A stretch of 64,000 nucleotides of DNA from Planctomycetota bacterium (GTDB lineage Bacteria > Planctomycetota > UBA1135 > UBA2386). Shown here piece after piece: positions 1,858 to 18,750 of this stretch (position 1 is its first letter; each line of letters opens with the position of its first letter). Made by a program: the position numbers and the translations under genes. Location: the NCBI GenBank assembly GCA_965223545.1, contig OZ245006.1, forward strand, positions 1,920,001 to 1,984,000, in the 5' to 3' direction. A model generated the notes under the pieces. The model saw nothing but the letters and a program-made list of their open reading frames with translations, was not told the origin of the DNA and ran no database searches.

Positions 1858-4836
1858 GTGTCCTCTACACAGCCCCAGCGACCGCCGCCGATTCCCGTGA
1901 CTTCCCCACATGCCGAACGACTGGCAGAGCACGCCGCCTTCGTGCAACGACTGGCACGGCAGCTCGTCGCCGACCCGGACCTGGCCGACGACGTCGCGCA
2001 GGAGACGCTGACCGCGGCCCTCGAACGGGCGCCCTCCGACCGCGCGGCACTGCCAGCGTGGCTCGGCGTGATCGCGCGCCACCGCGCCAGCAACGCCCGC
2101 CGCGCCGCCGCCCGCCGCGCGCGGCACGAGCGCGCCGCGGCGAAGCCCGAGGGCGACGCCGCCGCGACCGACGTGTTCGATCGACTCGAGGTGCAGCAGA
2201 CGCTGCTCGCGCAAGTGCGCGCGCTGCGCGAGCCCTACCGCACCGCGATCTGGCTGCGCTATTTCGACGACCTACCGCCGCGCGCGATCGCGCGCCGCCT
2301 CGGCCTTCCCGTCAAGACAGTGAAGACCCACCTCTACCGCGGCCTCGACGCTCTGCGCCACAGCCTCGACCGCCGGTGCGGCGGCGACCGGAGCCGGTGG
2401 GTCGCGGCCCTGATTCCACTGCACCAGAACGCGCTGGCCGCGGTCAGCATCCCCGGCGGAGCATTGCTCGTGAAGAAGACCCTCATCGTGGCCGCGGCAG
2501 CGGCCATCGCCCTCACCGGCTGGCTGACCCTCGGCGGCGGTGAGCCCCAGACCATCCCAGCCTCCCCGGGCACGGTGACCCCCGCGCAGGGAGCGGCGCG
2601 GACTCGGGACGCGACTTCCGAAGCGATCGCGTCCGCCGCGCCGCACCGCTCGGCGGCGGTGCCCACCGCCGCGCGCACCGGCAGCCTGCGCGTGCGGCTG
2701 CGGTGGACCGGCACGCAGGGCCCGGCCGCCGACGTCGGCGTCACCGCGTACGGCAGCGCGGACCACGGGTCGCGCCGCGCCCGCCGCGCGACGCGCACCG
2801 ACGCGCGCGGCGTCGCGGTGTTCGCCGCGATGCCCGCCGGTGACCTGACGCTGTGGTTGGACCGCGGCCATCGCTTCGGCGGCCTCGAGGTGGTGGCCGG
2901 CGAAGACCGCGAGATCGAGCTCGAAGTCCCGGCGGGCACCACCATCGCGGGGCGCGCCACGGCGCCCGACGGCAGCCCGGTGCCGGGTGCCGAGATTTGG
3001 GCACACCGCCACCACCCGGGCTTCTACGCCTCCGGTGTGATCGCGCGCACCGCCGCCGACGGTAGCTTCACCGTCGAGGGGGTGGAGGCGCGCACCGAGA
3101 TCGGCGCCTGGGCGCCCGGCTTCACTCCGTCGGTGCTGGTCGAGCCCAGCGCGCTGCCCGAGGACGCGCGGGGCCGGCGCCAGGTCGACCTCCGCCTCGG
3201 TGAAACGGGCGGCCGCGTCGCCGGCCGAGTTCTCGACGCCGACCGCCGGCCGGTTGCCGGCGCGGTGGTGAAGATCGGCTCCCGCGGCGGACACATCGTC
3301 GATCTCGACGACGGTCTGCGGGCCACGGCCACGCGGCCCATGCTGTTGACGACGGATGCCGCCGGCGCGTTCGCGACGTCTGGCGACCTGCCGCTCGGCT
3401 CCCATCCGGTGGCGGCAATGGCGCCGGAATCGCCGATTTGGTCGGGCGACATCATCGTTCGCGCAAACGCAACCGCCGACCTGGAGATCGTGCTGCGACG
3501 TCCAGTGCGGATCACCGGCAGAGTGCTCGACCTCGAGGGCGCTCCGGTTGCCGACGCCAAGGTCGTCGCCGCCGTCGAAGTCGGAGGCGGTTGGTACTTC
3601 GAGACCTTCCCGCCAGCCACGGCGAAGAGTGATACCACCGGGCACTACGTCCTCGAGCTGGTCGCCCCGGGCGACATCGAGCTCAACGCGTCCGTCGCCC
3701 GCAAGCCGAGCCTGGGCAAGGCACAGACCCGGCTGCAGGCCACCGACGGCGCGTCGATCACCCTCGACCTAGTGCTCGATCCCGGCGCCACGATCGATGG
3801 CACCGTGTTCGATCGCGAAGGCGACCCGCTCGGCGGCTGGAGAGTGCACACGGCAAACGACGGCCGCGTCTATCCGCGTCAGGCAGAGACCGCCGCCGAC
3901 GGCACCTTCCGCCTGGCCAATCTCGAGCCCGATCACGCCTACATCGTCCGGGTCAGTGCACCGGGTGATCCGCCGGTGCCGGCACGCGCCGAACGGCGGG
4001 GCGTGCGGCCGTCGGCCACGGCTCTCCAGTTCGTCATCGAAGATGCGTCCGTGCCCGACGCCGGCGTGCGCGGCCAGTTGGTCGGCAGCGAAGGCCGCCC
4101 ACCGGCCAACGTGCAGCTCACCTACTATCCCGAGGGGAGCAACATGGGCGGCTTTCTCACCGTCGACCCCGAAGACGGAACGTTCGAGAAGACCTCGCTG
4201 CGTCCCGGGACGTATCGGCTGCGCGCGCTGCGCGGTGGGCAGATGGTGTACGAGAGCCCACCGCTCGAGCTCAGCTCCGGCGAAGTAACCGACGCCGGCA
4301 CTCTGCGGCTGGCGACGGGCGGTCGCGTCGAGCTGTCGGTGACCGGCATCGACGACGCGCAGCGGAGTGCGTTGTCGCTGCGCATGGATCGACCGGGTCA
4401 CGGCACCGAGACACTCGATCTGCGCGACGCAGTGTTCGTCTCACGCGAGCTCTTGCCCGGGACGTGGAGTCTGCGCGCGGGCGGCGAGCGCTGGTGCGTG
4501 TCGCCGGCAGAGATCGAAGTGCCCGCGGGACGGACCGCGAGCATCTCGGTCACCGCGCACGCCGCGCGCGAGGTGCGGGTCGAGTGCACGCTGCCGGGCG
4601 CCGGCTGGCGCACGCTGCACTACGAGGTGCGGGATGACGAGCAGACGCTCTTCCGTCGCGGCACGCATCGGGAATCCGCGCAAGCGGAGCCCGAGCACGC
4701 ACAGGTGCTGTACGGACTGGCGCTGCCGGACGGGACCTTCACGCTGCGCGCTTGGACCGACGCGGGGCTGCAGGGAGAGCTGCGGTTGACGGTCGGCGGC
4801 ACCGCGCCACCGCGGCACCGCCTCGTCCTTCGCTGA
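1858..4836 (+). CDS. ECF-type sigma-70 factor fused via a TM segment to carboxypeptidase-regulatory-like (beta-sandwich) repeats
   Basis: Sigma region 2 (LADDVAQET, WLGVIARH) and region 4 (LREPYRTAIWLRYF...IARRLGLPVKTVKTHLYRG), hydrophobic stretch TLIVAAAAAIALTGWL, repeated G-x-V-x-D-x-x-G-x-P-V-x-G-A motifs. Start codon uncertain. Confidence 0.85.
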   Translation: MSSTQPQRPPPIPVTSPHAERLAEHAAFVQRLARQLVADPDLADDVAQETLTAALERAPSDRAALPAWLGVIARHRASNARRAAARRARHERAAAKPEGDAAATDVFDRLEVQQTLLAQVRALREPYRTAIWLRYFDDLPPRAIARRLGLPVKTVKTHLYRGLDALRHSLDRRCGGDRSRWVAALIPLHQNALAAVSIPGGALLVKKTLIVAAAAAIALTGWLTLGGGEPQTIPASPGTVTPAQGAARTRDATSEAIASAAPHRSAAVPTAARTGSLRVRLRWTGTQGPAADVGVTAYGSADHGSRRARRATRTDARGVAVFAAMPAGDLTLWLDRGHRFGGLEVVAGEDREIELEVPAGTTIAGRATAPDGSPVPGAEIWAHRHHPGFYASGVIARTAADGSFTVEGVEARTEIGAWAPGFTPSVLVEPSALPEDARGRRQVDLRLGETGGRVAGRVLDADRRPVAGAVVKIGSRGGHIVDLDDGLRATATRPMLLTTDAAGAFATSGDLPLGSHPVAAMAPESPIWSGDIIVRANATADLEIVLRRPVRITGRVLDLEGAPVADAKVVAAVEVGGGWYFETFPPATAKSDTTGHYVLELVAPGDIELNASVARKPSLGKAQTRLQATDGASITLDLVLDPGATIDGTVFDREGDPLGGWRVHTANDGRVYPRQAETAADGTFRLANLEPDHAYIVRVSAPGDPPVPARAERRGVRPSATALQFVIEDASVPDAGVRGQLVGSEGRPPANVQLTYYPEGSNMGGFLTVDPEDGTFEKTSLRPGTYRLRALRGGQMVYESPPLELSSGEVTDAGTLRLATGGRVELSVTGIDDAQRSALSLRMDRPGHGTETLDLRDAVFVSRELLPGTWSLRAGGERWCVSPAEIEVPAGRTASISVTAHAAREVRVECTLPGAGWRTLHYEVRDDEQTLFRRGTHRESAQAEPEHAQVLYGLALPDGTFTLRAWTDAGLQGELRLTVGGTAPPRHRLVLR

Positions 4837-4889
4837 GCGCCCCCCGCAGGCAGTTGTGCAGCGGCCGCTCCGGTGCTGCAATCCACCCT

Positions 4890-7712
4890 GTGGACCAGCG
4901 CGACGCCGAGACTCTGTCCGCGGGCGGTGACAGCCTCGACGACCTCGCCGCGGAGTGCGTCGCGCTGTACGAACAAGGCGGCGACACCGCCGTCGACGCC
5001 TTCTGCGAGCTCCATCCGGCGCACGCGAGCGAGATCCGCCAGCGCATGGCCACTCTGCGCGACCTCGGTCTGCTGGACATCGCCCGCGCCGAGACCGCGT
5101 TCCCCGAACGGTTTGGCGACTTTCGCCTACTCGAGCAGCTCGGTGGCGGTGGCATGGGCGTGGTCTACCGCGCCGAGCAGATGTCGCTCGGCCGCACGGT
5201 CGCCCTGAAGCTGGTGCGCCCGGACCGGCTGTTCTTCGAGGGTGCGCGCGAACGCTTCCGCCGCGAGATCGAGACGGTTGCCCAGCTGCAGCATCCCGGC
5301 ATCGTGCCGGTGTACGGCGCCGGCGTCGCCGGCGACCTGCCCTACTTCGCGATGGAGCTGGTGCGGGGGTGCTCGCTGGACGAGGTCATCGTCGGCTGCG
5401 CGCGCCAACCGCGCCCCACCGCGCGTGATTTGTACGCCGCGGTGTGCGAGGCCAGCGGCGTCGAGTTGGCGGAGACTCCCGAGCTGTTCGCCGGCAGCTG
5501 GGAGGAATCTGCGCTGCGCATCGCGCGCGCGATCGGCGAGGCGCTGCAACACGCCCACGACCGCGGCGTGGTGCACCGCGACGTCAAGCCGTCCAACGTG
5601 ATGATCACGCCAGAGGGCCGGGTCATGCTGGTCGACTTCGGTCTGGCCAGCTCGACCACTTCGCGGCAGCTGACGCACAGCGGCGCCGTCCTCGGTTCAC
5701 CACACTACATGGCGCCGGAGCAGGCCCGCGGCGAGTCCGACAGCCTCGGCCCGCCGGTCGACGTCTATGCGCTCGGCGTGACGCTCTACGAGCTGTTGAC
5801 TCGGCGCCGCGCGTTTACCGGTGGCACCACCGCCCGCGTGCTGACCGCGATCGAACGCGGCGACGTCCGGCCGCCCCGCATCCACGACCCGACGCTCTCG
5901 TGGGAGGCGCAGACGATCTGCCTGACGGCGATGGACATCGAGCCGGACCGCCGCTACCCGACCGCGGGCGCGATGGCGGCCGACCTCGCGGCTGCGCTGG
6001 CGCACCGACCCATCTCCGCCCGTCCGGCGAGCCGCGCGCGCCGGCTGCGGCGCTGGTGTCAACGGCACCCGGCCCGCGCGGTCGGCGCCGCGCTGGGCTC
6101 GTTCGTGCTCGTCGTCGGCCCGACCACGTTCGCGATCCAACAGCTGGTGGCCAACCGGCGCATCGGCACCGAGGCACGTATCGCGGACGCCAACCTGGTC
6201 ACCGCGCTGCGCGCGGTCGACGCCATGCTGACGCGGGTCGGCGCCAGCGAGCTGCGGCACGTGCCCCAGCTGACGCCAGTGCGCCAGCAGCTGCTGCAGG
6301 ACGCGACGACGCTGTTCGCCGAGCTCGAGGGGCGCGGCCGCGCCGGCGACGACGTCGCCCGGGGGGCCTGCGGAGCGCAGCTCAAGCTGGCGATGCTGCA
6401 GAGCGAGCTGGGCAACTACGACGACGCCGAAGCGGCGTTCGACCGTCTGCAGCCGACGATGGAGCGGCTGGCCACATCAGAGAAACAGGCCGACGTGCTG
6501 CGGCTTGCCGATCTGATGCATCAGCGCGGCATCCTCGCGCGGCACCGTTCGCGGCTCGAAGACGCCGAACGCGCGCAACAGCGCGCCGACGCACTGCTGG
6601 CAACCCTACCGACGAGCGCCGAGGCAGTCACTGCCGCCCGCATCAAGGTCGGTGCCGAGCGCGCCCACATCGCCACGCTGCGCGGCGACGTCGCTGCCGC
6701 CGAAGCCACCCTCGACGACGCCGCCCAGCACGGCGCCACGGCAGCGGCTTGGACCGAGCAGCCGGCAGTCGCCGCCGCACTGGCGAGAGTGTGGAATCGC
6801 CGCGGCGACCTGATGCTCGATCGCGAACGTTATCCCGAGGCCATCGACGCCTACGAACGCGGCGCCGCGATCATCCGCGCGCTGCTGGCCGCTACTCCCG
6901 ACAGTCGCGACCTCCGGACGCTGCTCGCCTCGCAGCTGCACAACCTCGCCATCGCCGCGCGCGAAGCCGGCGATCCGGAAACGGCGCTCGAGCACATTCG
7001 CCAATCCCACGCCGAACGGCGACAGCTGGTGCGCGAGTTCCCGGCCGGTCCCGACTACCGCTACGAGCTCGCCAAGATCTCGATCGTGCTCGCCAACACC
7101 CTGCGCGACAGTGGCGACCTCGACGGCATGCACGCGCACTACAGCGAGGCGGCGCTGATCGCCGAGGAGCTCGCCGCGGTGTATCCCGGCAACCCCAACT
7201 ACATCGCCACGCGCGGCTTCGCGCGACAGGGGTTGGGGTTTGTCGCCGCCATGCGCGGCGACTTCGCCACCGCCGCCGACGCGCTGCAGGGATCTGCCGA
7301 TGACCTGGCCGAGACCGCGGGTCGGCACGGCCCGGATTCGGTCCAACACCGTGGGCGCGCGATGAGCTTCTACGGCTTGATGCTCGCGCTGAAGGACCTT
7401 CGAGCGCCGAACGCCAACGAGCGGGGCGCGGCCGCGGCGGACGCCGCCATCGCGCACGGCCTGGCGCGCTGGCCGGACTTCGAGCTTGCGGTGAGCTTGC
7501 TCCGACGGGCAGCCGCGGCCGCCATGGACGACGAGTCTCTCACTCCTTCCGATCGCACGGCGCGCCGCAACGATTACACGGCACGCGCGGCGGCGGCACT
7601 GCGCGCCGCCGCCGACGCCGGCCACCACGACGCGGTGCTGCGCGCGCTCGACGACGCGTCGTTCTCGGCGGCGCCGTACCGCGCGCTGAAGAGCGAGCTG
7701 GAGGGGCGCTGA
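4890..7712 (+). CDS. Hanks-type Ser/Thr protein kinase with C-terminal TPR region
   Basis: LGGGGMGVVY, VALK, HRDVKPSN, DFG, YMAPEQ motifs, a hydrophobic segment, then helical repeats. GTG at 4890 chosen to avoid overlap with the upstream gene. Confidence 0.9.
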   Translation: MDQRDAETLSAGGDSLDDLAAECVALYEQGGDTAVDAFCELHPAHASEIRQRMATLRDLGLLDIARAETAFPERFGDFRLLEQLGGGGMGVVYRAEQMSLGRTVALKLVRPDRLFFEGARERFRREIETVAQLQHPGIVPVYGAGVAGDLPYFAMELVRGCSLDEVIVGCARQPRPTARDLYAAVCEASGVELAETPELFAGSWEESALRIARAIGEALQHAHDRGVVHRDVKPSNVMITPEGRVMLVDFGLASSTTSRQLTHSGAVLGSPHYMAPEQARGESDSLGPPVDVYALGVTLYELLTRRRAFTGGTTARVLTAIERGDVRPPRIHDPTLSWEAQTICLTAMDIEPDRRYPTAGAMAADLAAALAHRPISARPASRARRLRRWCQRHPARAVGAALGSFVLVVGPTTFAIQQLVANRRIGTEARIADANLVTALRAVDAMLTRVGASELRHVPQLTPVRQQLLQDATTLFAELEGRGRAGDDVARGACGAQLKLAMLQSELGNYDDAEAAFDRLQPTMERLATSEKQADVLRLADLMHQRGILARHRSRLEDAERAQQRADALLATLPTSAEAVTAARIKVGAERAHIATLRGDVAAAEATLDDAAQHGATAAAWTEQPAVAAALARVWNRRGDLMLDRERYPEAIDAYERGAAIIRALLAATPDSRDLRTLLASQLHNLAIAAREAGDPETALEHIRQSHAERRQLVREFPAGPDYRYELAKISIVLANTLRDSGDLDGMHAHYSEAALIAEELAAVYPGNPNYIATRGFARQGLGFVAAMRGDFATAADALQGSADDLAETAGRHGPDSVQHRGRAMSFYGLMLALKDLRAPNANERGAAAADAAIAHGLARWPDFELAVSLLRRAAAAAMDDESLTPSDRTARRNDYTARAAAALRAAADAGHHDAVLRALDDASFSAAPYRALKSELEGR
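7482..7598 (+). repeat. Kinase 3' segment, copy A of a diverged inverted repeat (partner 18745-18861)
   Basis: Manual alignment: 94/117 nt and 32/39 aa identical to the reverse complement of 18745-18861. Confidence 0.9.
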
Positions 7713-8087
7713 GACAGTTCACCGGCTCTGCTCACCGCTGCCGAACACGGCGAGCGCCGCGGTGAGAAGCCAGCTCTCGAAGCCGCCGAGGTCCTGATCT
7801 CGGATCCCGGCGTTGGTCAAGGTGGCGATCCGGCGCGCAGGCGCTGCCCGTACGGAAGCCGCGTCGCCATCGACGTCACCGCCGTGGGCGATCATACGCG
7901 CACCGACGTCCTCCGTGTCAACGACGGAACACCGAGCCCGTACGCCCAGTCCGTCGTTCTCGTGAACCGGTAGAACGGAGTCTGCATCAGGCGGTCTGCG
8001 TAGTCCGCCGCGGACCACAGGCTCCGTGTCCTCGCCCATCAGGCCACGCCGAACCGTCGCTAGCCACACCCATATGCCCCCCCCTAG

Positions 8088-9133
8088 GCGTCGCCAGGTC
8101 TTGAACTCGCTGAGCTGGTTGATCGTGGTCTCGACTCGGAGCACGCTGCCGGCCTTGTCGTACATCTTGACCGAGTTTGCCTTGGCGGAGCGCTTGACGC
8201 GCACTCCCTCGATCCGGCGCTTGTAGTCCGTGGTTGCCTCGCCGCGGTAGCTGACCGATGGCGACTTGGCGAGGAACCGCAGGACGTCGGGGCTGTGGAA
8301 GTCGGTGACGGCGTGCCGAACCAGCGACGGATAGCACCGGGCCAAGGTCGCCGCGTCGGCGAACATGACGTCGGTGGCCCACTCGGCCTGGTGAACGGTC
8401 CAGTAGAAGTCCGCTCGCGCGGCGTTGGCGACTGCGGCCAGTGCGGGGTTCGCGCGGTGGACCAGATTGCCGAGCACCGCGCTCCAGTCGAGGCGGAGCA
8501 TTCGGCCCATGATCTCCTGGACACGCTCGGGGCTGGCGAAGGACGGAAAGCAGTTGTCGGCGCGGGTGTGGACGAGTCGTTCGCGCGCGAGCTGACGACC
8601 GAGCCACTCGCGGCCGTTGATGCAGATCTGGACCGTGTACGGCATCCAGGTCTGGACACGGACGCAACAGAGGCCAAGCTCGCGATCGAGGAAGTAGTGG
8701 TAGTGGTGCAGACACTTCGTGACGCGCCGCCGTACTGCCGTACTTGCTGCGGATGCTTGTGCTCGCGGGAGCGGCGCACCTGCCAGCTCGAGCATGGTTC
8801 GACGATGGAGAGCAGGCAGATCGCTCCGGAGCGGATCGGGCGCTCGGCCAAGATCTTCTTGGCGACGTCCTCCTTCCGGATCCGGCTGGACTCGAGCTAG
8901 CGGGCCGGAAGCTGCAGCCGCTCGGCGACGGACGTTGCGCCAGCGCGGATCATGCCGGTCACGGACTCGACGAACTTGCCGAAGTCCTTGAGCAGCACGC
9001 CTTGCGAAGACAAGAACGACCGGACGCCGCTCTCGTGGCAGAGTGGCAGCAGGTGGCCCCGGAAGACAAGGCGGTCGAAACCACGCAGGATGCCGGTGAT
9101 CTTCGCGGCGTGACGGTGTACGAAACGTTGCAC
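8088..9133 (-). pseudogene. Decayed mobile-element protein, Rep/transposase-like (FDRLVFRG...KMYDK...LRVETTIN family)
   Basis: GTG at 9133 after GAGGAG. In-frame TAG at 8897-8899, frameshift from an 8-bp tandem duplication (8729-8744), C-terminus lost near 8088. Pieces rejoin into one coherent reading frame. Confidence 0.7.
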
Positions 9134-9455
9134 AACTTCCGCTCCTCGACCTCGGCTGTTGTGTTGACAACTTCGGTCGTACCGAGGACCGGGGCCGTAT
9201 TCACGCTTCAAGCGTCCGGCAGCCATCGCCGTGATCGTGTGCTCGCCGCTCTCCCGCGGTCAGCCCGACGCCATCGCCCACCGCGGCGTTCCCAGTTGTG
9301 TTGCGGGCGTCAGCCCGCGATAGGTGACAGAAGAAGACCTGGGGTAGCCCAGCACCGCCTGAACATCGCAAGACGCCATTCCCCGGTCATCGGCGCGCGC
9401 GAGCGTGCACCATTTCCGCCGTGACGCAATCGTCAGCGCCGCCGGCTACGTCGGC

Positions 9456-9484
9456 TTGACGGTGCGGGGGACCTTCGCTATTAA
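9456..9484 (+). promoter_or_regulatory. Candidate sigma70-type promoter for the radical SAM operon
   Basis: TTGACG (9456-9461), 17-bp spacer, TATTAA (9479-9484), just upstream of GTG 9492. The -10 is imperfect. Confidence 0.35.
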
Positions 9485-9491
9485 GGGAAGA

Positions 9492-10766
9492 GTGGAGTAC
9501 CAGAATCACGCGTTCCTCCAGCACAGTCCGTCGACGGGAGTACGGCAGCCGAAGAAGGGCGTCCAGGCAAAGGATGTCGACTTGCGTTCGATTCCGCCTG
9601 TCCCGGTGACCAACTTGGATATCGATATAACCGAGGGGTGCAACCTCGCCTGCTCATATTGTTTCAAAGGCGAGTTGGAGGGCAATCACATGTCCCTCGA
9701 AACGCTCAAGCAATGCTACGACTGGCTATCGGCAGCCTCTAGAGGTGCAGAGCAAATCAACTTCAACTTCATGGGTGGCGAGCCCACCATGAGGTGGAAG
9801 GAGATTCGAGCGTTTGTGCCCTGGGCTCGCCGTCGTTCGTTGGCGGAGGGCAAGCTGGCGACGTTTAGCATGACCTCGAACCTGACGTTGTGGACCGACG
9901 AGATACGGGACTTTGTTGACAAGTATGGGTTCGGTATCCTTATGTCGATTGACGGGTGCCCCGACGTTCAGGATGCTCAGCGGCCGGCCAAGAACGGCCG
10001 CCCCATGTCGGAGACGGTCGAGCGCTGGGCCAAGTCGTTGTTGAGGACGCGCCAACGGTCGACAGCGCGGATGACCTTGTCGCCACACTACGTAGGCCGA
10101 TTCAGAGAGAGCGTAGCATACTTAGTAGAAATTGGCTTTTCGGAGGTCACCGTCGGGACGGCGGACTACGGGTCATGGTCCATGTTGGACCTAGCGACTT
10201 TTCGAGAGCAGTTGGCCGGAATCGTGGAGGACATCGGCCAGTCGTATACAGGCGCAAAGCCCTTTCAGATGACGGTTCTGAAATACCTGGTTGACCATGT
10301 AGTTCGGCACCGAAGAGAAGGGAAGCCGGAGCGTATTGAGCGGCGAGATAGCCCATGTGGTGCCGGGAAGGGGTATCTGATGGTCGACCACACTGGCGAC
10401 ATCTGGCCCTGCCACCGCTTCGATGGTGCTGACCAGGATGTAGGGGCTGAGGGGTCCATGCGAATGGGCAACATCTACCAGCCCGGGTTTCATACGAGTC
10501 TACAGCAGGCGTTCTTGGAGTTTGACCACTCCAAGAAGAGGAAAGAGTCGTGTGATACATGTCCGGTCGACCCGGTCTGTGGCGGATTCTGCCCCGCGGC
10601 GAATCTCCAAGACTCAGGCAACATCTACACGCCGCATGACGGTTACTGCGTGCTATCGCAGGGCTTCTACCGGGCAGCTGACCATCTCTACTCCCTAGCA
10701 GCGGGCGGTGGGTTCTTGGACAGATTGTTGAAGGATTGCGAGGGGACAGACAGCGATGGACGCTAG
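9492..10766 (+). CDS. Radical SAM/SPASM domain peptide or protein maturase
   Basis: CNLACSYC, GGEP, SIDG; SPASM cysteines CGAG...WPCHRF...CDTCPVDPVCGGFC...YC. GTG 9492 follows a purine-rich AAGGGAAGA. Confidence 0.95.
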   Translation: MEYQNHAFLQHSPSTGVRQPKKGVQAKDVDLRSIPPVPVTNLDIDITEGCNLACSYCFKGELEGNHMSLETLKQCYDWLSAASRGAEQINFNFMGGEPTMRWKEIRAFVPWARRRSLAEGKLATFSMTSNLTLWTDEIRDFVDKYGFGILMSIDGCPDVQDAQRPAKNGRPMSETVERWAKSLLRTRQRSTARMTLSPHYVGRFRESVAYLVEIGFSEVTVGTADYGSWSMLDLATFREQLAGIVEDIGQSYTGAKPFQMTVLKYLVDHVVRHRREGKPERIERRDSPCGAGKGYLMVDHTGDIWPCHRFDGADQDVGAEGSMRMGNIYQPGFHTSLQQAFLEFDHSKKRKESCDTCPVDPVCGGFCPAANLQDSGNIYTPHDGYCVLSQGFYRAADHLYSLAAGGGFLDRLLKDCEGTDSDGR

Positions 10767-11679
10767 CGCAGCGGAGCGGGAGTTGCGTGGCCCTTACGGC
10801 GTGCTCACCCAGGAACGCGATGGGCTAGTGGTTCGAAGGCGGCCGCGGCCCGTGCTACCGAAGACTTGGGTCGGTGTGGTCGACGCGTCCGGTTCCGACG
10901 CGGTCCAACTCGCGAAGGAGTGGGAGTCGCGCGCGTTACGACCGATGTCTAGCGTTGCGTTAGAGGTGACTTGTCATGACAAGCAGGACCTCGAGAGGTT
11001 GCCCGAACTCTTGCAAGGGGTCGCGGGGGTCGTGGTGTCAGTCCCGGCGATTTGGTTGGTTGAGCCATCAGCTGAAGAGTGGCAGTTCGCGGAATCGGTG
11101 CAACGGCTGCGAATAGTGGATGAGGGCCTGGAAGGCAACGACCTACTGAGAGCCGGGGAACGCTACGCGGGCCTGGAGGCTGAGGGCTTGCTGGTGGAGG
11201 TAGAATTGCGCCATGATTACCCCTCGGATTTGCTCAGCCGCGTAGAGTTCTGGTCGACTGCGGGGAGAGCCAGCCCCGTGCATCTGAGTGCAGTCGGAGA
11301 TGGCGGTATGAGCCAGGATGACCGTGTCGAAGAGTATTTGAGGGCTGGTGCACTCTTGGGGAACGCCGTCTTGCGGAGTGAGCCGTTCAGGAGCATACTG
11401 GCTCCGATGTTGGAGGAGCGGGAGTATCTGCATGCGGCTCCAGCGTCGGCAGCGCGCTGGACGCTCCGCAGGGAGCGCTGTCCAGCCTGTCCGTGGCGGG
11501 CGTTCTGTCTCGTCACACGGGTTGGACCAATGTTGGTGGACCAAGATGTCGCGATGGAGTGTGCTTTGCGGAAGGCCGTCTTGGCGTCCTGCTTGACCGC
11601 GCGCGCCGCCGAAGGCGAACGAGAACGCAGCGCCAGTGCAAGGAGTTCAGAGAAATGGCGAGACTACTTGCTGGTCTAG
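10756..11679 (+). CDS. Hypothetical protein with partial SPASM-like Cys cluster (possible degenerate rSAM partner)
   Basis: Overlaps the rSAM stop by 11 nt. C-terminal CPACPWRAFC-x17-C; no CxxxCxxC motif. Confidence 0.65.
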   Translation: MDASAAERELRGPYGVLTQERDGLVVRRRPRPVLPKTWVGVVDASGSDAVQLAKEWESRALRPMSSVALEVTCHDKQDLERLPELLQGVAGVVVSVPAIWLVEPSAEEWQFAESVQRLRIVDEGLEGNDLLRAGERYAGLEAEGLLVEVELRHDYPSDLLSRVEFWSTAGRASPVHLSAVGDGGMSQDDRVEEYLRAGALLGNAVLRSEPFRSILAPMLEEREYLHAAPASAARWTLRRERCPACPWRAFCLVTRVGPMLVDQDVAMECALRKAVLASCLTARAAEGERERSASARSSEKWRDYLLV

Positions 11680-12893
11680 CCCTGCTGGTTGCTGGTCTAG
11701 CCCTGCTGGCAGTCATTTGGCTCGCTGCAGAGGCGTCGACCGGGCTGAGGCCCCCTGACGGTGGCCCGGCCAACAAGTCGGACAGTGTGCTCGTCCGTGA
11801 TTCGGAGCGAGTGACATCGAGGTTGCGCATCGAAGCACCAGCGCCCACGCTGAGTGTGCTCGCTCAAGATGGTCGCTTGGTAGAGGGGGCGGAGGTCGTG
11901 GTCGCAGGAGCGCGCGGCCAGGAGGTGAAGGGGAGGCGGTACGTTATTGGAGCGGAGGTCGGCGATACTGCACCCGTTGACATAGTTGCTCGAGGCTTTT
12001 GGCCTTGGAGTCGGGAGCTGCGTATCGAGCAGGAGAACACTGTCCGCTTGACACCAAGGAACTGGTTAGAGCTGTGTGTGGTCGATGCTGTTTCGACGGT
12101 CCCTGTGCCTACGTTTGAAGTGCTACCGACAGATGTTGTTGTGAAGCAAGAACACCCACAGGTCGGTTGCGTGTGGTTGCGTGCGAGTGGTCGCGGCGGG
12201 TTTGCGGTGGGCGTCGCCGCACCAGGATACCCATTCCAGGAGGTCTGGGTCAAGGGCCACAACAGGAGAGCGGTGGTGGAGCTCCTGGCATCCTGTTCGT
12301 TGGCTGGGGTTGTGCGAAGCCGGGATGGCGCTCCGTTGAGCGGTGTTGAGGTGGTGGACCCTAGGCTTGGACTGCGCGGCGAACCACTGGGAGTAACAGC
12401 CGAGGACGGCAGCTTCTCTGTCGAAGTCGCGCCAGTGGATGGCGCTGTGAACCTGCAGCTGCGGAAAGAGGGCTGTGTGCGGTTGGAGTTTCGGCGCCGC
12501 GGCGCTCCGGGTGGGAGGCAATGGTGTGGCGAGGTGGAGGTCCCCGAGGCCGCAATAGTGTTTGGTGTGGTGACGGGCGCGGACGGTCATCCTGTCGTGG
12601 GCGCGGGAATCGTTGTTGCACAAGGTTCCTTGATTAGGAGCGGTGTGCGCGGGCTGACAACACACGAGAAAAGGTGTCGTAAGCGGCTCCCGCGGGGCTG
12701 GCGCGTCGTCAGAGACGTTGAGCGACTTTTGGCCGTTACAAGCAAGGACGGCAGTTACCGGGTCGACGGAGTCGTGCCCGGGACGGTGCGGCAGAGGGTC
12801 TGGGTGACCGCTGGCGACAAAACTGTTGGAAAGACGATACCGGAAGTTGCCACTGGCGGCGCACGGTATCAGTGTGACATTTCGTTGCGGTAG
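11655..12893 (+). CDS. Membrane-anchored carboxypeptidase-regulatory-like domain protein
   Basis: ATG 11655 after AAGGAG. N-terminal TM helix; GVVRSRDGAPLSGVEV, GVVTGADGHPVVGA and TSKDGSYRVDGV motifs. Confidence 0.75.
   Translation: MARLLAGLALLVAGLALLAVIWLAAEASTGLRPPDGGPANKSDSVLVRDSERVTSRLRIEAPAPTLSVLAQDGRLVEGAEVVVAGARGQEVKGRRYVIGAEVGDTAPVDIVARGFWPWSRELRIEQENTVRLTPRNWLELCVVDAVSTVPVPTFEVLPTDVVVKQEHPQVGCVWLRASGRGGFAVGVAAPGYPFQEVWVKGHNRRAVVELLASCSLAGVVRSRDGAPLSGVEVVDPRLGLRGEPLGVTAEDGSFSVEVAPVDGAVNLQLRKEGCVRLEFRRRGAPGGRQWCGEVEVPEAAIVFGVVTGADGHPVVGAGIVVAQGSLIRSGVRGLTTHEKRCRKRLPRGWRVVRDVERLLAVTSKDGSYRVDGVVPGTVRQRVWVTAGDKTVGKTIPEVATGGARYQCDISLR
11668..11709 (+). repeat. Perfect 21-bp tandem duplication in the TM-coding segment
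   Basis: ttgctggtctagccctgctgg x2, in frame (LAGLALL/VAGLALL). Confidence 0.95.
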
Positions 12894-12906
12894 AGGAGTC
12901 TGGCAG

Positions 12907-13590
12907 ATGAATCAGGAAGAACTGGTCGAGGCTGTGACCGAACTGGTAACCCGCCGAACGGCGATGCGGACGGCAGTCATGGGGCTGGCCGCAGTGTTGG
13001 GGCGGGCGGCGAGTGCTGCCGTTCCGACGTCGTCATCCACATTCTCTACAGAATGCACGGGGGCCAACACGTGTAGCGCCACACAGCCCAACGAATGCGT
13101 GAGCGGCGAGAACAACACTTGCTCAGGTGTCAACACCTGCACCAGCTATAACACCTGTGAAGGTGCTGGGACGACGAACGACTGCTCGAGCGACAACACG
13201 TGCACCAACAGCAACTGGTGCGACCTAGGAGCTAGCAACAACTGCGAGGTTCAGACTTCGGGCAATTCGTGTTCGACGACCGGGGACGTTGGCTCGTCCA
13301 ACACCTGCACTCCTGTTCAGGCGCAGAACAACTGCACGCCTGGAATTGGCGACGATACAGGTAACGGGTGCACGGGAGCAATGAGCAACAAGTGCTCCGC
13401 TGGCTCGAGCAACAACTGCCAGAGCATAGGTTCCGGTCGGAACGAGTGTTCCGGGGGCTCGGAATCGAACACGTGTGTTGGTATCGGTGCGAACAACAAT
13501 TGTGAGTCAGCGTCGACCAATACATGTGGGACCGGTGGCTCGCAGATGAACACTTGCTTGAAAAGCGCGTCGAACACCGTTGGGCCGTAA
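12907..13590 (+). CDS. Twin-arginine signal, Cys/Asn/Ser/Thr/Gly-rich N-x-C repeat protein; putative rSAM substrate
   Basis: GAGGAG 8 nt before ATG 12907. TRRTAM + hydrophobic region + ASA cleavage-like site. 21 Cys, 20 of them in N-x-C. Confidence 0.85.
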   Translation: MNQEELVEAVTELVTRRTAMRTAVMGLAAVLGRAASAAVPTSSSTFSTECTGANTCSATQPNECVSGENNTCSGVNTCTSYNTCEGAGTTNDCSSDNTCTNSNWCDLGASNNCEVQTSGNSCSTTGDVGSSNTCTPVQAQNNCTPGIGDDTGNGCTGAMSNKCSAGSSNNCQSIGSGRNECSGGSESNTCVGIGANNNCESASTNTCGTGGSQMNTCLKSASNTVGP

Positions 13591-13609
13591 GGTCATGCAA
13601 ACCTTCTGC

Positions 13610-14170
13610 TAGTGGGGCTGGTCAGAAATTCGCATCATAGATATCCAGCTACTTGGCAGCGATGTCGTCGCAGTAACGCTGGAGAGATCGCAGGATCTGG
13701 TCTGCTGTCTTGGACCATACGTACGGGGAGGGATCGTCGTTGTGCTCATCGAGGAAGCTGCGGATGTCTTGTTCGAGGGCACGGGTCGAGCGGTGCACGC
13801 CTCGCTTGAGCTTTCGGCGAGAGAGCAGTGAGAAGAAGCTCTCCGCCACGTTCAACCAAGAAGACTTGGTTGGCGTGAAGTGAAGTTGGAATCGAGGGTG
13901 CCGCAGCAACCAACGTTTCACATCGGCAGTCTTGTGTCTTGTGTGTCGCGTAGTTGTCCAAGATGACGTGGATGTCCAGGTGCGCGGGCACGTTGCTGTC
14001 AATTTCGTCGAGGAAGCGAATGAACTCCTTAGCCCGGTGCTTCCTGAAGCACTTCCCGATCACGCGGCCCGTCGCCACGTCGAGTGCTGCGAACAGAGTC
14101 GTCGTACCATGTCGGATGTAGCGGTCGGTTTGCCGAGCATTGACTGTGGGTCGCATCGGCAAGAGCGGCT
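13610..14170 (-). pseudogene. IS630-family transposase remnant (C-terminal part), interrupted by IS66
   Basis: YIRHGTTTLFAALDVATG, ILDNYATHK, HFTPTKSSWLN motifs. 7-bp duplication frameshift at 13929-13942; CTAG at 13609-13612 as likely end. DRAQPL continues at about 16663-16680 beyond the IS66. Confidence 0.9.
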
Positions 14171-14291
14171 GTAACTGTTCCGGCACGCACGTTCTTCGCG
14201 CCGCGCCGAACCGGCGCATGAACAGAGATTTCCGCCACCGGGTGTCGGCACCGGCGCCGGCCACGACGGTGACCGTCCGTAGCTGGCTGGG

Positions 14292-15914
14292 CTACGAGCC
14301 CACGAACAACTGACGCACGATGTTGTCGATCGCGTTGTCGGCTTTGGCGATCTGGGCACGCCGTTGCCGTCCCAGCATCCAGCCACGCGGAGTCAGCTGA
14401 CCGACCTGGGAGGCAGGAGTGGTCGAGATCGCGTGAAGCACATCCCGCAGGTAGAGCAGCGGGCTGATGCCATGCTCTCGACACGACTGGACGAGACTCA
14501 AGAGGATGAGTGAAGCTTGGGTGCCGTCCTCGGATCCGAAGAAGAGCCAGTTCTTCTTGCCGATCACGACTGCACGCAGAGCACGCTCGCAACCGTTGTT
14601 CGAGATCTCGCGGATGCGGCCATCGGTCAGGAAGCGCTCGAGAGCAGGCCACTGGTTGAGCCCGTAGCGAACTCCCTCCATGAGCGGCCCCTTCGGGAGG
14701 CTCGGCTGGTCGATGTGCATCTGCTCGAGCCAAGCCTTGAGCGCGTTCGCAATCGGGCGAGAGTCGCGCTGACGGACCTCGACCAGCTCGTCATCCGTGA
14801 AGGGTCGACCATCTTTGCCCTTCTTGGCGACGCTCTCGATCGCGAACAGCTTGCCGATCCAGCCCAGAGCCTTCTCCGTGGTCGAGTCGCCGAGCTTCCG
14901 CGCATTCACGAAGTAGCGACGAAGGTGTGCCCAGCATCCGATGCGCGCGATGCTGGTTGGATCGAGATCGCTGTAGCAGTCATGGCCATCGCACTGCAAC
15001 CGACCACCGCGGTCGCCCAAGACCTCTTTGGGGCTGCCGCGATTGCGTGAGTCCGTAGCGGTGTAGAAAACCCCGGCGTGTTGATCGCGCCACGCCCACA
15101 CGTGGATCTTTTTCTGTCCGGGGTTTCGGCCGTTGCGCTGGTTGCCGTAGGTGTCGTCCACCTGCAGGACGGAGGTGTCGAGGCTCTCGAGAACTTGCTC
15201 GACATGGGCATCGAACACGGGCTTCAGGAGCTCGGCACAGCGCATCGCCGAAGTGCATAGGACGCTACGCGACAGGCTGAGCCCCTCGGCTGCGTACTTC
15301 TTCTCCAACCGCGCGTACGGCATGTGGTTGGCAAAGCGGTCGAAGATGATCTGCGCAAGGAAGCCGGGGCCGAGGATGCTTTTGTCGAGGACTCGGGTGG
15401 GGCCCGCGGCGACGACGACGTAGCCCTGACAGGTCGCGCAGGAGTACTTCTTCCTCACGATCTGGTGGACGAACGAGAGCTCGATGCGCTCGAGCTCCTG
15501 CGAGACCTCTTCGCCGAACTCCCGACGGCCGTTGCCGCAGCAAGGGCACAGCAGGTCCTCGCCCTCGATCGTGAATACGGAGCGTTGCCGCGGAAGATGC
15601 TCTGGGAAGTCCTTGCGTCGCTTGGTGCGCTTGCGCTTGTGCTCGGGGACGGTGATCTCTTCGGCCTCTTCTTCGGCCGCCTTGGCGTCGGCTCCCGCTT
15701 CCTCTACAGCCTCTTGCGCGAACGGCAGCAGCTGTCGCGGGTCGATGTAGCGGCTCTTCTCCGAGCGGCGACCGAACAGCATGCGCTGAAGGTCGGACAT
15801 CTGCGACTTCAGCGACGAGATCTGCGTGAGCAGATCCGGGATCAAGGCACGTAGCTGCGCCTCATCCAGTGCGTCGACGTTGACCGTTTGCTTGCGACCG
15901 CCCATCGCGACCAT
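14292..15914 (-). CDS. tnpC: IS66 DDE transposase TnpC
   Basis: LFGRRSEK, CPCC/CATC zinc finger, CWAHLRRYF, ISNNGCERALR. Confidence 0.95.
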   Translation of the reverse strand: MVAMGGRKQTVNVDALDEAQLRALIPDLLTQISSLKSQMSDLQRMLFGRRSEKSRYIDPRQLLPFAQEAVEEAGADAKAAEEEAEEITVPEHKRKRTKRRKDFPEHLPRQRSVFTIEGEDLLCPCCGNGRREFGEEVSQELERIELSFVHQIVRKKYSCATCQGYVVVAAGPTRVLDKSILGPGFLAQIIFDRFANHMPYARLEKKYAAEGLSLSRSVLCTSAMRCAELLKPVFDAHVEQVLESLDTSVLQVDDTYGNQRNGRNPGQKKIHVWAWRDQHAGVFYTATDSRNRGSPKEVLGDRGGRLQCDGHDCYSDLDPTSIARIGCWAHLRRYFVNARKLGDSTTEKALGWIGKLFAIESVAKKGKDGRPFTDDELVEVRQRDSRPIANALKAWLEQMHIDQPSLPKGPLMEGVRYGLNQWPALERFLTDGRIREISNNGCERALRAVVIGKKNWLFFGSEDGTQASLILLSLVQSCREHGISPLLYLRDVLHAISTTPASQVGQLTPRGWMLGRQRRAQIAKADNAIDNIVRQLFVGS

Positions 15915-16275
15915 TGATACGAACAGAGCGCGAGTAATGCCGACGAAACTTGGCGGATTTCAGATCAATCCCTTCGAGCAACATCACGAGCTGTGCGCGC
16001 TCGACTTCGACATGTGTGGCGTCGCCGCTCTTGGGACGCCAACTGTCAAACGTGCCGCGCTCGAGTCGCTTCATCGAGATCCAGAAACCGTTGCGATCCC
16101 AGAACAAGATCTTCACGCGATCGCGACGCCGGTTGAAGAACGCGAAGACGTCGCCATCGAACGGATCCCGATGAAAGCTGTGCTGGACGATCGCGCTCAG
16201 CCCGTCGAACGACTTCCTCATGTCGGTTGGCTCGTTGGCGACGTACACGCGCACGCCCGCTGGGAAGGCCAGCAT
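15862..16275 (-). CDS. tnpB: IS66 accessory protein TnpB
   Basis: TDMRKSFDGL, FFNRRRDRVKILFWDRNGF, KRLERGTF. Confidence 0.95.
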   Translation of the reverse strand: MLAFPAGVRVYVANEPTDMRKSFDGLSAIVQHSFHRDPFDGDVFAFFNRRRDRVKILFWDRNGFWISMKRLERGTFDSWRPKSGDATHVEVERAQLVMLLEGIDLKSAKFRRHYSRSVRINGRDGRSQANGQRRRTG

Positions 16276-16613
16276 CAGTCGGCCACAGAGTCCAGCAAGC
16301 GGTACGCGATGTCTTGAGCAATCGCGCCCTCGAACTCCGCGACGACGCCCGCCGGGAACCTGAGCCGCACAAGGCTCGAGCTCTCGCCCTCGTCGTTACT
16401 CGTCCGGCCCCGACCATCGCGATCGACGACTCGGACCTCCGCGAACCCAGTGCTCTCCTCCGATCGCAACCGATGCGACCACCAACTCAGCGTCCCGATC
16501 GGGATACCGAACCGCTCCGAGAGCGCACGCAGCGAAAACCCTTCCTGCTCGCGGAGCGCGAGAACCTGCCGGATCTCACGGCGACGACTTGCTCGCTTCG
16601 ACATGGCCGCCAT
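16275..16613 (-). CDS. tnpA: IS66 accessory protein TnpA (HTH)
   Basis: HTH-like SLRALSERFGIPIGTLSWW; position upstream of tnpB inside the IRs. Confidence 0.85.
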   Translation of the reverse strand: MAAMSKRASRRREIRQVLALREQEGFSLRALSERFGIPIGTLSWWSHRLRSEESTGFAEVRVVDRDGRGRTSNDEGESSSLVRLRFPAGVVAEFEGAIAQDIAYRLLDSVAD

Positions 16614-16785
16614 CGTGGCGAACGACTCGAGCGTTTGCAGACGTGGTTGCCGGAACAGTTACGAGCGGCTGCGCTCGATCCCGCACCAACGGCCTTCTAG
16701 GCCCAGAACCAGAGTTCGTGTCACCAGCGTAAGCGTCCGGTGAAGGCATCTCGAAAGCCGCTGGCGGATCGGCAGGATGCGGCGG

Positions 16786-17121
16786 ATGACGAAGAGAATC
16801 CCCGTGTGGGCTCGAGCGGAGATGCGCGAGCTGCTTCAAGAGCTGGACACCTCAGGCGTGACGTTCGCCGAGTTCGCGCGCCGGCGTGGTGTCAACGCAA
16901 ACCGCATCTACTGGGCGAGGCGGCAAGCCCGAGCTGCGGCGGCGCCGACCTCCGCGCAGGCGATGTCGGACTTCGGGGAGCTGGTGGTCGCCGCAGACCC
17001 GTCTCCGCGACGAGCAGCGGCCATTGAGTTTCGGGTGCCGTCGGGCGCGGTTGTCGATGTGCAGCGCGACTTCGACGAAGCGACGCTCCGACGGCTGCTC
17101 GGAGTCCTGCTGTCATGCTGA
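16786..17121 (+). CDS. tnpA: IS66 TnpA
   Basis: SGVTFAEFARRRGVNANRIYW HTH; DEATLRRLL C-terminus; overlaps tnpB start. Confidence 0.85.
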   Translation: MTKRIPVWARAEMRELLQELDTSGVTFAEFARRRGVNANRIYWARRQARAAAAPTSAQAMSDFGELVVAADPSPRRAAAIEFRVPSGAVVDVQRDFDEATLRRLLGVLLSC

Positions 17122-17477
17122 GCTTTCCGCCCTCGCCGCTAGTCAAGATCTTCGTTTGCCGGAAGCCGGTGGACATGAGGAAGAGCTTCAGCGGTCTGTC
17201 GGGTGCGGTCATCGACGTGGTCGACCACGACCCGCAATCTGGTCACCTCTTCCTCTTCTTCAACAAGCGCCGGACCATGATGAAGGCACTGGTGTGGGAG
17301 CCGTCTGGTTACTGGGTGCTGGCGAAGCGACTTACGAGCGGCCGCTTTCAGGTCTTCGATCGCTCGGCTGAGAACAGCAGCCGATTCGAGATTGCGAGTA
17401 GCGATCTCGCGCTCTTGTTGGACGGCATCGACCTCCGTGGCGCGCGCCGCAGAGAAGTTCGCGATCAGGTGCTGTAA
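17115..17477 (+). CDS. tnpB: IS66 TnpB
   Basis: VDMRKSFSGL, FLFFNKRR, LLLDGIDL. Confidence 0.93.
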   Translation: MLSFPPSPLVKIFVCRKPVDMRKSFSGLSGAVIDVVDHDPQSGHLFLFFNKRRTMMKALVWEPSGYWVLAKRLTSGRFQVFDRSAENSSRFEIASSDLALLLDGIDLRGARRREVRDQVL

Positions 17478-17525
17478 CGACTGGCCGCGACTTGATCCGT
17501 CTCCGGTTTGTGTTAATCAGAGGGA

Positions 17526-18200
17526 GTGACGCCGCTCACGGACCTCGACGAAGCCAACTCGACGATCGTCAAGCTGCGCGCCGAGATCGAGCGCCTTCGC
17601 GAGCAGCTCGAACTGATGAAGCAGCGCACGTTCGGACGGCGCCGCGAGCACATCGATCCGAACCAACTGCTGCTGTTCGAGGCCGGCGTCGCGCAGCTCG
17701 AAGAGCTGCAGAAGCAGGCGCAGGAAGCGGAGCAGTCGAGCGAACTCGCGAAGCCTGACCCGAAGAAGAAGCGGAAGCGCGGTCACGGTCGCGGTCAGTT
17801 CGCCGAGCACCTGGATCGGCATGTCGTCGAGGTCGACGTGCCGGAAGCGGAGCGCTGCTGCCCCGAGTGCGGCGAGGCCATGCACTGCATCGGAACTGAC
17901 GTCACCGAGCGTGGCCACATCATCCCAGCGCGGTTGGTCGTGAAGCGCTACGTGCGCAACAAGTACGCGTGCCCGCACGGGCACAGGATGAAGATGGCGT
18001 CGATGCCTGCCGGCGTCGTCGAGAAGGCGAAGTACGAGCCCTCCGTCTACGCGCATCTCGTCACAGCGAAGTACGGCGACCACCTGCCGCTGAACCGCCT
18101 GCAGGGGATCTTCCGCCGCTTCGGGGCGCACGTCCCGAAGTAGACCATGTGGGACATGCTGGCGCGCTTCGACGAGATCGCGGCGCGTCCGATCCTGGCC
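17526..18200 (+). pseudogene. tnpC: Truncated IS66 TnpC (coiled coil and zinc finger only)
   Basis: FGRRREH, CCPEC, KYGDHLPLNRL, then TAG at 18141-18143; catalytic domain missing before the right IR. Confidence 0.9.
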
Positions 18201-18409
18201 GGCCAGTCCTGCTGAAACGCGTCGGCGGTCGCTTTTCAACCGCTGGCCGCCATGGCGTCACCGGACGCTTACTCACCAGCCGCCATCTGGCGATTGCTTG
18301 AGCTGAGATAGGGAGGCCGCGCCAGCGGCGACGACTGCAGCGATGAGGCGACGTCCGGCAGTCGTGACCCGGTAGCGATGCGTGCCCCGAACCTTGTCGA
18401 TGACGCCGT

Positions 18410-18750
18410 GAGCACAGAGCAGACGCTGCAGTCGAGTGACCCGTGCGCTGATGCAGGAGGTTGGCGACTTCCGCGGGCGTCAGCTGTAGCCGCTGGGCCT
18501 CGTCGAGAATGCGCGCGATGAACGACGCGCATGCGGGATCCGTGCCGGCGCCGGTCTGCCTGCGCAGCGCGACCGTACCGCGCGCGCCCCGGACCGCGAC
18601 CAGCCCGAGCTCGGCGTAGGCGCGGCGGATGGTGTGGAAGTTGACACCCCAGCGCTGCGCGGCATCCCGCGCCGACGGCAGCCTCTCGCCCTGCACCAGC
18701 TGGCCGGTGGCGAGCTGATAACGGATCGCTTCGACGATCTGGTCCGCCAC
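18410..18750 (-). pseudogene. GntR-family regulator, N-terminal HTH half
   Basis: QIVEAIRYQLATGQLVQGERLPSARDAAQRWGVNFHTIRRAYAEL; no native start, joined in frame to a kinase fragment. Confidence 0.8.

Follow-up and report, generated by a model that had tools for sequence, protein, structure and literature searches.

This work concerns four co-oriented genes at positions 9456 to 13590 of a 64,000-nucleotide (nt) stretch of a Planctomycetota genome (contig OZ245006.1, positions 1,920,001 to 1,984,000; the whole stretch is called the window below). They encode, in this order, an enzyme with radical S-adenosylmethionine (rSAM) and SPASM domains, a partner protein, a membrane-anchored protein and a cysteine-rich repeat protein, referred to here as the precursor. 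The system is real, conserved and unnamed, and its best reading is a three-gene core of enzyme, catalytically dead partner and precursor. Judged from the sequences, thioether formation of some kind on the precursor is likely. On balance we lean towards the more specific proposal that a two-part ranthisynthase would install about 20 Cys-S–Cβ-Asn thioethers, each Cys being joined to a partner Asn usually six residues downstream (Cys→Asn(+6)), before the product leaves the cytoplasm by twin-arginine translocation (Tat).

The linkage of the genes was analysed in 23 other loci of the enzyme clade, the window's own being left out. An open reading frame (ORF) with N-x-C repeats and an RR leader adjoins the enzyme gene in 18 of them, as the preliminary description of the window had led one to expect, and one locus has two. 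The five misses comprise three contigs of 1.1-2.7 kb, a locus in which the enzyme is broken by an integrase gene (L023) and one in which it is truncated (L075). No N-x-C ORF was found in any of four QhpD-like control loci. Gene order differs between the cassette loci, and among those compared no gene for a peptidase or an ABC exporter is recurrent. The clade is sparse: it was found in 6 of 401 genomes in a sample of the phylum and in 6 of 339 genomes of the class (E < 1e-100), both counts including the window's genome, and in 4 of 42 genomes of another class. Among its named close homologues Planctomycetota predominate; two belong to Sumerlaeota and one to an unclassified bacterium. The family is apparently undescribed, and it would represent ranthionine chemistry on proteins in a new form.

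The repeat unit of the precursor

The precursor gene, ORF 12907 (12907..13590, + strand), codes for 227 amino acids (aa), comprising an RR leader and 21 units of the form Cys...Asn. Twenty of its 21 Cys lie in N-x-C motifs; 100,000 shuffles of the core averaged 3.2 and never exceeded 11. In a six-frame scan of the 8.1-Mb genome it was the sole segment with more than five such motifs, and its first description as a Cys-repeat protein is borne out. It belongs to no Pfam or NCBIfam family. A single-sequence search with the precursor returned nothing, a profile added four proteins, and its matches in the Atlas, all under 0.9, were not used. The repeat was scored in 23 precursors of 173-355 aa with 13-37 Cys: the window's own, 18 from the loci and the four from the profile search, with the 5′-cut L024 excluded.

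Asn at position -2 was found for none of the 23 first mature Cys and for 417 of the 474 later ones; Asp is the commonest substitute there (15 of 57). At the other end of the repeat, the position six residues after the last Cys is occupied by Asn in 12 of the 21 scorable precursors and by Asp in another 4, the backgrounds being 6.5% and 5.5%. The window's example of such an orphan residue is Asn223 (13573..13575, + strand), which is at +6 from the last Cys, is itself followed by no further Cys and so marks a Cys→Asn register. In units of at least 8 residues without Asn or Asp at -2, Asn stands at -4 in 18 of 27 cases, and for 16 of these 18 Asn the distance from the Cys before them is still +6 or +7. 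Because the first Cys is without an Asn, the terminal Asx is an orphan and the Asn at -4 keep their distance of +6/+7, the repeat unit is probably C-x5-N-x, each Cys being followed by its partner Asx. Units with a period of eight have Asn at +6 in 95% of cases and unconserved loop positions, with at most 40% Gly at +2; in 14 precursors Asn occupies -2 for 261 and -3 for 20 of 297 Cys. The register rule was derived from the initial 18 precursors and checked on the five later ones: their first Cys lacks the Asn in 5/5, and +6 is Asn or Asp in three of the four scorable cases, with Asn at +5 in the fourth.

The preliminary description had favoured the opposite register, with the Asn before the Cys as for NxxcB, so that three-residue rings would close from each Cys back to the Asn at -2. 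The near-fixed N-x-C spacing speaks for such rings, as do NxxcA, in which Cys23 is linked to Asn20, and the three-residue Cys32-Thr34 ring reported for CteA (PMC8326336). They would, however, leave the first Cys and the last Asn unpartnered in almost every member, and the N-x3-C units with a C→N distance held at 6-7 would go unexplained. This register fits the repeat ends and the spacing variants worse than Cys→Asn(+6), and we regard it as improbable. Part of the preferred C-x5-N-x unit's own record also counts against it. Within the repeats the N→C distance is fixed at 2 while the C→N distance ranges over 3-11, with three short units as odd exceptions; it is 6 in 157 of 324 and otherwise mostly 4-11. 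Taken alone, this contrast in spacing speaks for N-x-C as the unit. Were Asn the ladder residue of a solenoid, the patterns at the ends and in the spacing would arise as well. Finally, the precursors are kin and not independent; binomial p-values overstate the case, and the argument rests on the counts.

The AlphaFold model of the precursor is a β-solenoid of low confidence, with a pLDDT score (the predicted value of the local distance difference test) of 62. Its best structural matches are curli CsgA (Z 11.8, root-mean-square deviation (rmsd) 7.8, 171 residues aligned) and an antifreeze β-helix (Z 10.2, rmsd 2.9, 159 aligned), at Z values that mean little for repeats when under about 13, and Foldseek returned no match to the model at E ≤ 0.001. 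The model and these two matches suit a curli-like protein in which the thioether would go to a loop residue (the Cα of Gly, or Ser/Thr) and Asn/Asp would serve as ladder or turn residues; the loops are rich in Gly, Ser and Thr, and Asx is no less suited to turns than to radicals. Against this stands the lack of any conserved loop position beside the nearly constant Asn at +6, together with an active-site profile of the enzyme that resembles ranthisynthases (see below) and the small weight of such Z values, and we consider acceptors in the loops unlikely. A two-stranded solenoid would reconcile both spacings with the preferred Cys→Asn register, N-x-C forming a strand and each Cys facing the next Asn across a variable turn; the weak AlphaFold model is of this type. 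Thirteen of the 23 precursors have an odd number of Cys, which argues against plain disulfide pairing.

Some repeat proteins were noted in their own right. In L072 (3877-6186, - strand) two tandem precursors with 31 and 33 Cys often have Asp for Asn and end in a C-terminal N-x3-C run. The member in L076 (7026-8963, + strand) is divergent: its period is 5-6, and a separate protein with an RR leader lies between precursor and partner. Elsewhere in the window's genome, a small lipoprotein-like ORF (G000:C1:5504043-5504426, - strand) carries repeated H/N-A-C-K-G-x-N-x-C-R-G-x-G-G-C units and resembles precursors of the bufferin/MNIO type.

The enzyme and its partner

The enzyme (9456..10766, + strand; start codon uncertain within 9405-9492, the candidates being 9405, 9456, 9462 and 9492) has the Radical_SAM and SPASM domains of Pfam, as first described. 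In 70 aligned members the three Cys of the CxxxCxxC motif for the SAM-binding cluster (9639..9662, + strand) are kept in 70, 69 and 70 sequences. The seven-Cys SPASM domain (10356..10649, + strand) has six Cys in 70/70 and one in 69/70, with no conserved eighth Cys, and the 25 residues upstream contain no conserved Cys in these members. That there are seven SPASM Cys and no conserved eighth implies that the AuxI site is open, like that of CteB and CrpC; AuxI and AuxII were assigned by analogy to these two. The His and the Arg that follow the second SPASM Cys are both present in 70/70 members. Six catalytic-proximity positions have been defined with CteB as the reference (PMC10288494); the enzyme reads F-M-T-S-H-R there and CteB F-F-T-S-H-Q, four of the six being identical. 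Since only 8-90 poorly conserved residues precede CxxxCxxC in the clade, the enzyme has no fused RRE (RiPP recognition element, the RiPPs being peptides made on the ribosome and modified after translation); the alignment to CteB begins at CteB residue 100.

The enzyme scores under every NCBIfam equivalog cut-off, the nearest families being PapB (NF047865, 212 bits against a cut-off of 340), QhpD (TIGR03906, 191/453), nif11 (181/519) and SCIFF (150/425). All 70 aligned homologues match PapB, nif11, QhpD, SCIFF and a ScfB-related orphan family at E ≤ 1e-30 as their top five, and the best sequence match in the PDB is CteB (E 2e-28). In a 60-row tree the 18 enzymes with N-x-C neighbours share one branch with 13 rows of unknown context, at a Shimodaira-Hasegawa-like approximate likelihood ratio test (SH-aLRT) value of 96. 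Outside this branch lie L080, a locus scoring above the cut-off of QhpD, and P0111, a protein above that of PapB; the tree is a quick run with SH-aLRT and no bootstrap, in which known enzymes are represented by family-assigned stand-ins only. By sequence, the clade is placed nearest to PapB, QhpD and CteB, and is unnamed.

A different kind of activity, such as oxidation of Cys or Asn, might be supposed, with the Cys staying free to bind a metal or to form disulfides after export, and metal binding has indeed been suggested for CrpA (PMC13692751). Odd Cys numbers and the uniformly thioether-forming nature of the enzyme's nearest families speak against it. The grouping with thioether-forming maturases also sets the enzyme apart from anaerobic sulfatase maturases, the kinship that would have told against the preliminary description: TIGR03942 gives 85/349 bits and TIGR04463 54/525, and no sulfatase motif was found among the ORFs >350 aa in the loci scanned. 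We hold an activity other than thioether formation to be highly improbable. The earlier suggestion that the enzyme links Cys, possibly to Asn, keeps its support in this grouping, with Asn the likely acceptor; it is the direction of the rings that has to be changed.

Second-tier rSAM matches occur in about 40 of the 339 genomes of the class (L042-L065, L077-L080). L080 scores above the QhpD cut-off, and maturases of quinohemoprotein amine dehydrogenase may be common in the class. Selenocysteine at in-match TGA codons of second-tier matches was considered and rejected, the codons being ordinary stops in the five loci checked. In L015 a gene for an NfuA-like Fe-S carrier (Fe-S_biosyn + NifU; 2196-2849, + strand) directly follows the enzyme.

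The second gene, ORF 10756 (10756..11679, + strand), belongs to a family that was collected with a profile of seven neighbours and comprises 50 representatives, mostly of 430-490 aa, 46 of which were aligned. CxxxCxxC is present in 0/46, and Cx2Cx5C is kept in 44/46 and a fourth Cys in at least 90%. We take these four Cys, by analogy, to be AuxII ligands. None of the 46 matched a Pfam family, and one of the 46 gave a weak NCBIfam match, to HxsB. In profile comparison with the enzyme by hhalign, the 46-row alignment reached a probability of 82% (E 1e-5, 270 columns), and a 13-row alignment gave 0.8%. The model of the homologue P0125 (pLDDT 57) has CteB as its first Foldseek match (E 5.6e-5) and aligns to it by VIA with Z 9.2 and rmsd 4.5 over 216 residues. 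Its residues 3-79 align to the RRE of lasso B1 (Z 7.5, rmsd 3.0, 73 aligned), and the Atlas model of the same protein has a template modelling (TM) score of 0.70 over 419 residues to a full-length rSAM cluster. According to these models the family is one of dead rSAM paralogues with an RRE, a partial barrel and a SPASM region, and the partner probably supplies the RRE that the enzyme lacks.

For the homologous pair of G199, complex prediction gave 0.58 (runs of 0.13, 0.58 and 0.58) against a best control of 0.00, with a contact agreement of at least 91% and a partner pLDDT of at least 81. A mark of 0.58 is reached by 116 of 157 solved pairs and 2 of 215 mismatched ones, and 18 solved pairs and both mismatches lie at 0.60 or under; the prediction lends weak support to an enzyme-partner complex.

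The window's ORF 10756 is a truncated member of the family. It aligns only from position 107 of the partner model, and the stretch ahead of a conserved Gly measures 143 residues, as opposed to 194-311 in 42 of 45 others; most of the RRE (about 70 N-terminal aa) is missing. It is also about 40 residues short in the SPASM region. No substitute RRE of the partner type was found in the window's genome (best E 0.07), and the cassette may be impaired by this loss. The partial-SPASM protein of the preliminary description has its SPASM-type Cys, and it derives from a family of full-length dead rSAM proteins carrying an RRE. In L001 (4487-5884, + strand) the partner is present as two adjacent ORFs, by a split gene or a frameshift.

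Leader, maturation and genomic setting

The precursor of the window begins with a twin-arginine-like signal peptide (12907..13017, + strand) in which T-R-R-T-A-M-R, with the RR at residues 16-17, is followed by a hydrophobic stretch and A-S-A-A, with a putative A-S-A cleavage site. It fits a loose twin-arginine pattern and has no match to TIGR01409 or PF10518. The RR is invariant in 14/14 aligned precursors. Among all 23 leaders RRxF occurs in 12 and the loose motif in 19, a hydrophobic stretch follows in nearly all, and in many precursors the first Cys comes directly after AxA. The window's genome has one TatC match over the cut-off (E 3.5e-61). At the level of the family, these sequence features make Tat export likely. 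For the window's leader the description as a twin-arginine signal stands as to RR, hydrophobic stretch and AxA, in the loose form of the motif only.

Deviant leaders (RREVG, RRLSL, RRTAM), the 4 of 23 that fail even the loose motif and the weak family matches would also suit a leader that is mainly a recognition sequence for the enzyme, or a decayed signal, with no Tat export. The recurrence of RRxF, a hydrophobic stretch and AxA in distant members, many with the first Cys right after AxA, is harder to explain in this way, as is the absence of a recurrent peptidase or ABC exporter gene from the loci compared, and the window's genome has TatC. We think a leader without an export role improbable.

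Maturation by the preferred route would proceed as follows. The enzyme and its partner, probably a heterodimer, would be brought to the precursor by the partner's RRE, which would bind the leader and present it to the RRE-less enzyme. From what is known of related families, each Cys thiolate would bind the open AuxI iron and the 5′-deoxyadenosyl radical would take a β-hydrogen from the next Asn, usually at +6. Both the activation of Cys at AuxI and the abstraction of a β-hydrogen from Asn have been described (PMC9389541). An S-Cβ (ranthionine) bond would form with a loss of 2 Da each time, up to 21 times in the window's precursor. The stapled core would then fold, possibly into a small β-solenoid with one staple per turn, and pass folded through Tat, with cleavage of the signal at AxA. 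The staples would take over the part that disulfides play in other Cys-repeat proteins. A stapled periplasmic or surface scaffold is favoured over a cleaved antibiotic because no peptidase or ABC exporter recurs among the loci compared, and it is the least certain part of the proposal. Taken as a whole, the picture of a two-subunit ranthisynthase that reads a Tat signal as leader and sets 13-37 tandem Cys-Asn thioethers, one per β-solenoid turn, in an exported structural or surface protein whose reduction-proof staples replace disulfides is tentative, and all its parts are rather unlikely to hold together.

Several observations on enzyme, partner and leader weigh against this route. The His-Arg pair of PapB has been modelled on the acceptor carboxylate (PMC10739248), and the Asn here is neutral. 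A partner match by hidden Markov model (E ≤ 0.002) was obtained in 13 of the 23 loci, five of which were seeds and five weak; in L013, L017, L018, L020 and L021 the partner's place is taken by an ORF of about 400 aa without a match, and no partner gene was seen in L015, a contig of 8 kb. One of the three complex runs for G199 stayed at 0.13. The window's leader is without the consensus Phe, and TIGR01409 matches just 3 of 14 leaders weakly, with a best E of 0.027. No kinship with the partner (hhalign 0.8%) or with the enzyme could be established for the ORFs of about 400 aa in L017, L018, L020 and L021.

The third gene, ORF 11655 (11655..12893, + strand), codes for a membrane-anchored β-sandwich protein, as first described, with one hydrophobic N-terminal stretch and a CarboxypepD_reg domain (PF13620, E 1e-9). 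It may be an accessory or a passenger. The domain has at least 148 matches in the window's genome and the protein is linked by BLAST to just 1 of the 18 loci compared, and on these two grounds it was rejected as a core part: the gene is not conserved in the cassette. L023 also has a CarboxypepD_reg protein, and at other loci unrelated proteins with hydrophobic N-terminal stretches occupy the same place, so an envelope partner may be usual but not fixed. Two proteins recur upstream of the precursor in L017, L018 and L021: one of the YfiO/TPR type, scanned in L017, and one of about 380 aa that looks secreted.

All four frames of the cassette are open on the + strand; the genes overlap by 11 and 25 nt and are then separated by 13 nt, as originally reported. 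The frames are intact in this sense, with the reservation that ORF 10756 lacks the N-terminal and internal segments given above. Contigs of four sequencing runs cover 8600-13814 or further with no letter changed and no gap; they represent at most two samples of one study and are possibly the source data of the assembly. The cassette lies in an island with a GC content of 0.58-0.63 and a GC content at third codon positions (GC3) of 0.64-0.71, the two flanking genes having 0.72-0.73 and 0.87-0.88. To its right, insertion-sequence (IS) debris at 13649..18272 consists of a DDE_3 fragment, a complete-looking IS66 with 22-nt inverted ends (14171-16662) and a partial second IS66 (16729-18272). At the left end of the complete IS66 the contig depth is several-fold above that of the cassette, as for a multicopy element. 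The whole island is enclosed by an inverted repeat of 116 nt (81%; 7482-7597 and 18746-18861), the right copy of which repeats the end of the Ser/Thr kinase gene within an ORF that runs on into a GntR domain. To the left of the cassette lie an ORF that is transposase-like by eye and has no Pfam match (7719-9170, - strand) and, at 1858-7712, an ECF (extracytoplasmic function) sigma factor that carries fused CarboxypepD_reg repeats and, after it, a TPR-containing Ser/Thr kinase. Sigma-like or kinase genes are also near the cassette in L009, L011, L012 and L013. A promoter and terminator scan gave no usable signal.

The IS-flanked, low-GC setting, the missing RRE with no replacement found and the broken cassettes elsewhere (L023, L075) suggest that the family could be real and the window's copy a decaying transferred cassette, not fully working. 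Its four open and tightly coupled frames, the in-frame nature of the deletions and the retention of the catalytic Cys and of the partner's four Cys argue the other way. Such decay, which is compatible with any of the readings of the chemistry, is a serious possibility that falls short of being probable.

Relation to known thioether-forming systems

Thioethers made by radical chemistry are known on few proteins (QhpC, CrpA). If the proposal is true, an Asn acceptor and a protein-sized substrate would be joined in one system with about 20 links per chain; in the window's precursor there would be 21 links ending at Asn223, against 20 under N-x-C rings. We know of no protein class more densely crosslinked by radicals. 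A pseudo-enzyme would serve as the leader-binding subunit of an rSAM maturase, a Tat signal would double as a RiPP leader, and an enzyme able to close numerous Cys-Asn rings of different sizes would make a useful tool for stapling. In the literature searched (titles and the starts of abstracts, with poor coverage of subscription papers) neither the family nor the combination of Asn acceptor and protein-sized substrate was found. The preliminary description had recognised no N-x-C, Tat-linked, protein-sized substrate class; as a combination this is upheld, and size alone is not new, since CrpA, a protein of 28.8 kDa crosslinked by ranthionines, is already in print (PMC13692751). As a native thioether acceptor, Asn is given for NxxcA only in the reviews consulted.

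NxxcB and NxxcA resemble the present system in that an rSAM enzyme makes a thioether from a Cys sulphur to an Asn β-carbon (PMC9389541, PMC8326336), and differ in the single link, the Asn three residues before the Cys and the short streptococcal peptide; it is by description that NxxcB is set apart. Elsewhere the Cys precedes its acceptor, as in CX3D of PapA (PMC10739248), in CteA (PMC8326336) and in CrpA (PMC13692751). PapB/PapA (freyrasin) is the best-scoring family, with several Cys→Asx β-thioethers, Cys first, and the same His-Arg after the SPASM Cys. The enzyme nevertheless stays well under the PapB cut-off, and the acceptor in PapA is the Asp of CX3D in a short peptide, unlike the family here with its Asn mostly at +6, 13-37 Cys, RR leader, absence of a fused RRE and dead partner. 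CteB/CteA (SCIFF; PDB 5WGG/5WHY) provides the best solved relative of both the enzyme and the partner model, and shares the open AuxI; it differs by its fused RRE, H-Q rather than H-R, and one Cys-Thr link in a peptide of 45 residues.

The QhpC product is exported, and QhpD, as judged from L080 with the domain assigned by eye, carries its own RRE, unlike the enzyme here. QhpD/QhpC is otherwise alike in having a protein substrate, Cys→Asx/Glx thioethers and leader recognition by an RRE (PMC13692751), and unlike in its separate clade and its three links to Asp/Glu. In CrpC/CrpA of Methanococcus voltae (TIGR04463) the likeness extends to a protein-sized Cys-repeat substrate, a seven-Cys SPASM domain, the Cys-first order and a β-helix predicted at low confidence (PMC13692751). 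The score of the enzyme against TIGR04463 is very low, CrpC has a fused RRE, and the motifs are C-X-X-Q/D; the main text of that paper does not contain the words Tat, twin-arginine, signal peptide or Asn, and one of its supplements has no row with 'planctomyc' or 'sumerlae' and one unrelated Phycisphaerales row.

The closest parallels to a two-part enzyme are found in systems in which a second protein is needed. HxsB and HxsC act as such a paired maturase. In HxsB/HxsC, StsB/StsC and PqqE/PqqD the RRE is provided in trans (for StsC, PMC10288494). Unlike HxsC and the discrete RREs, the RRE of the family described here would ride on a full-length, catalytically dead paralogue of the rSAM/SPASM enzyme itself.

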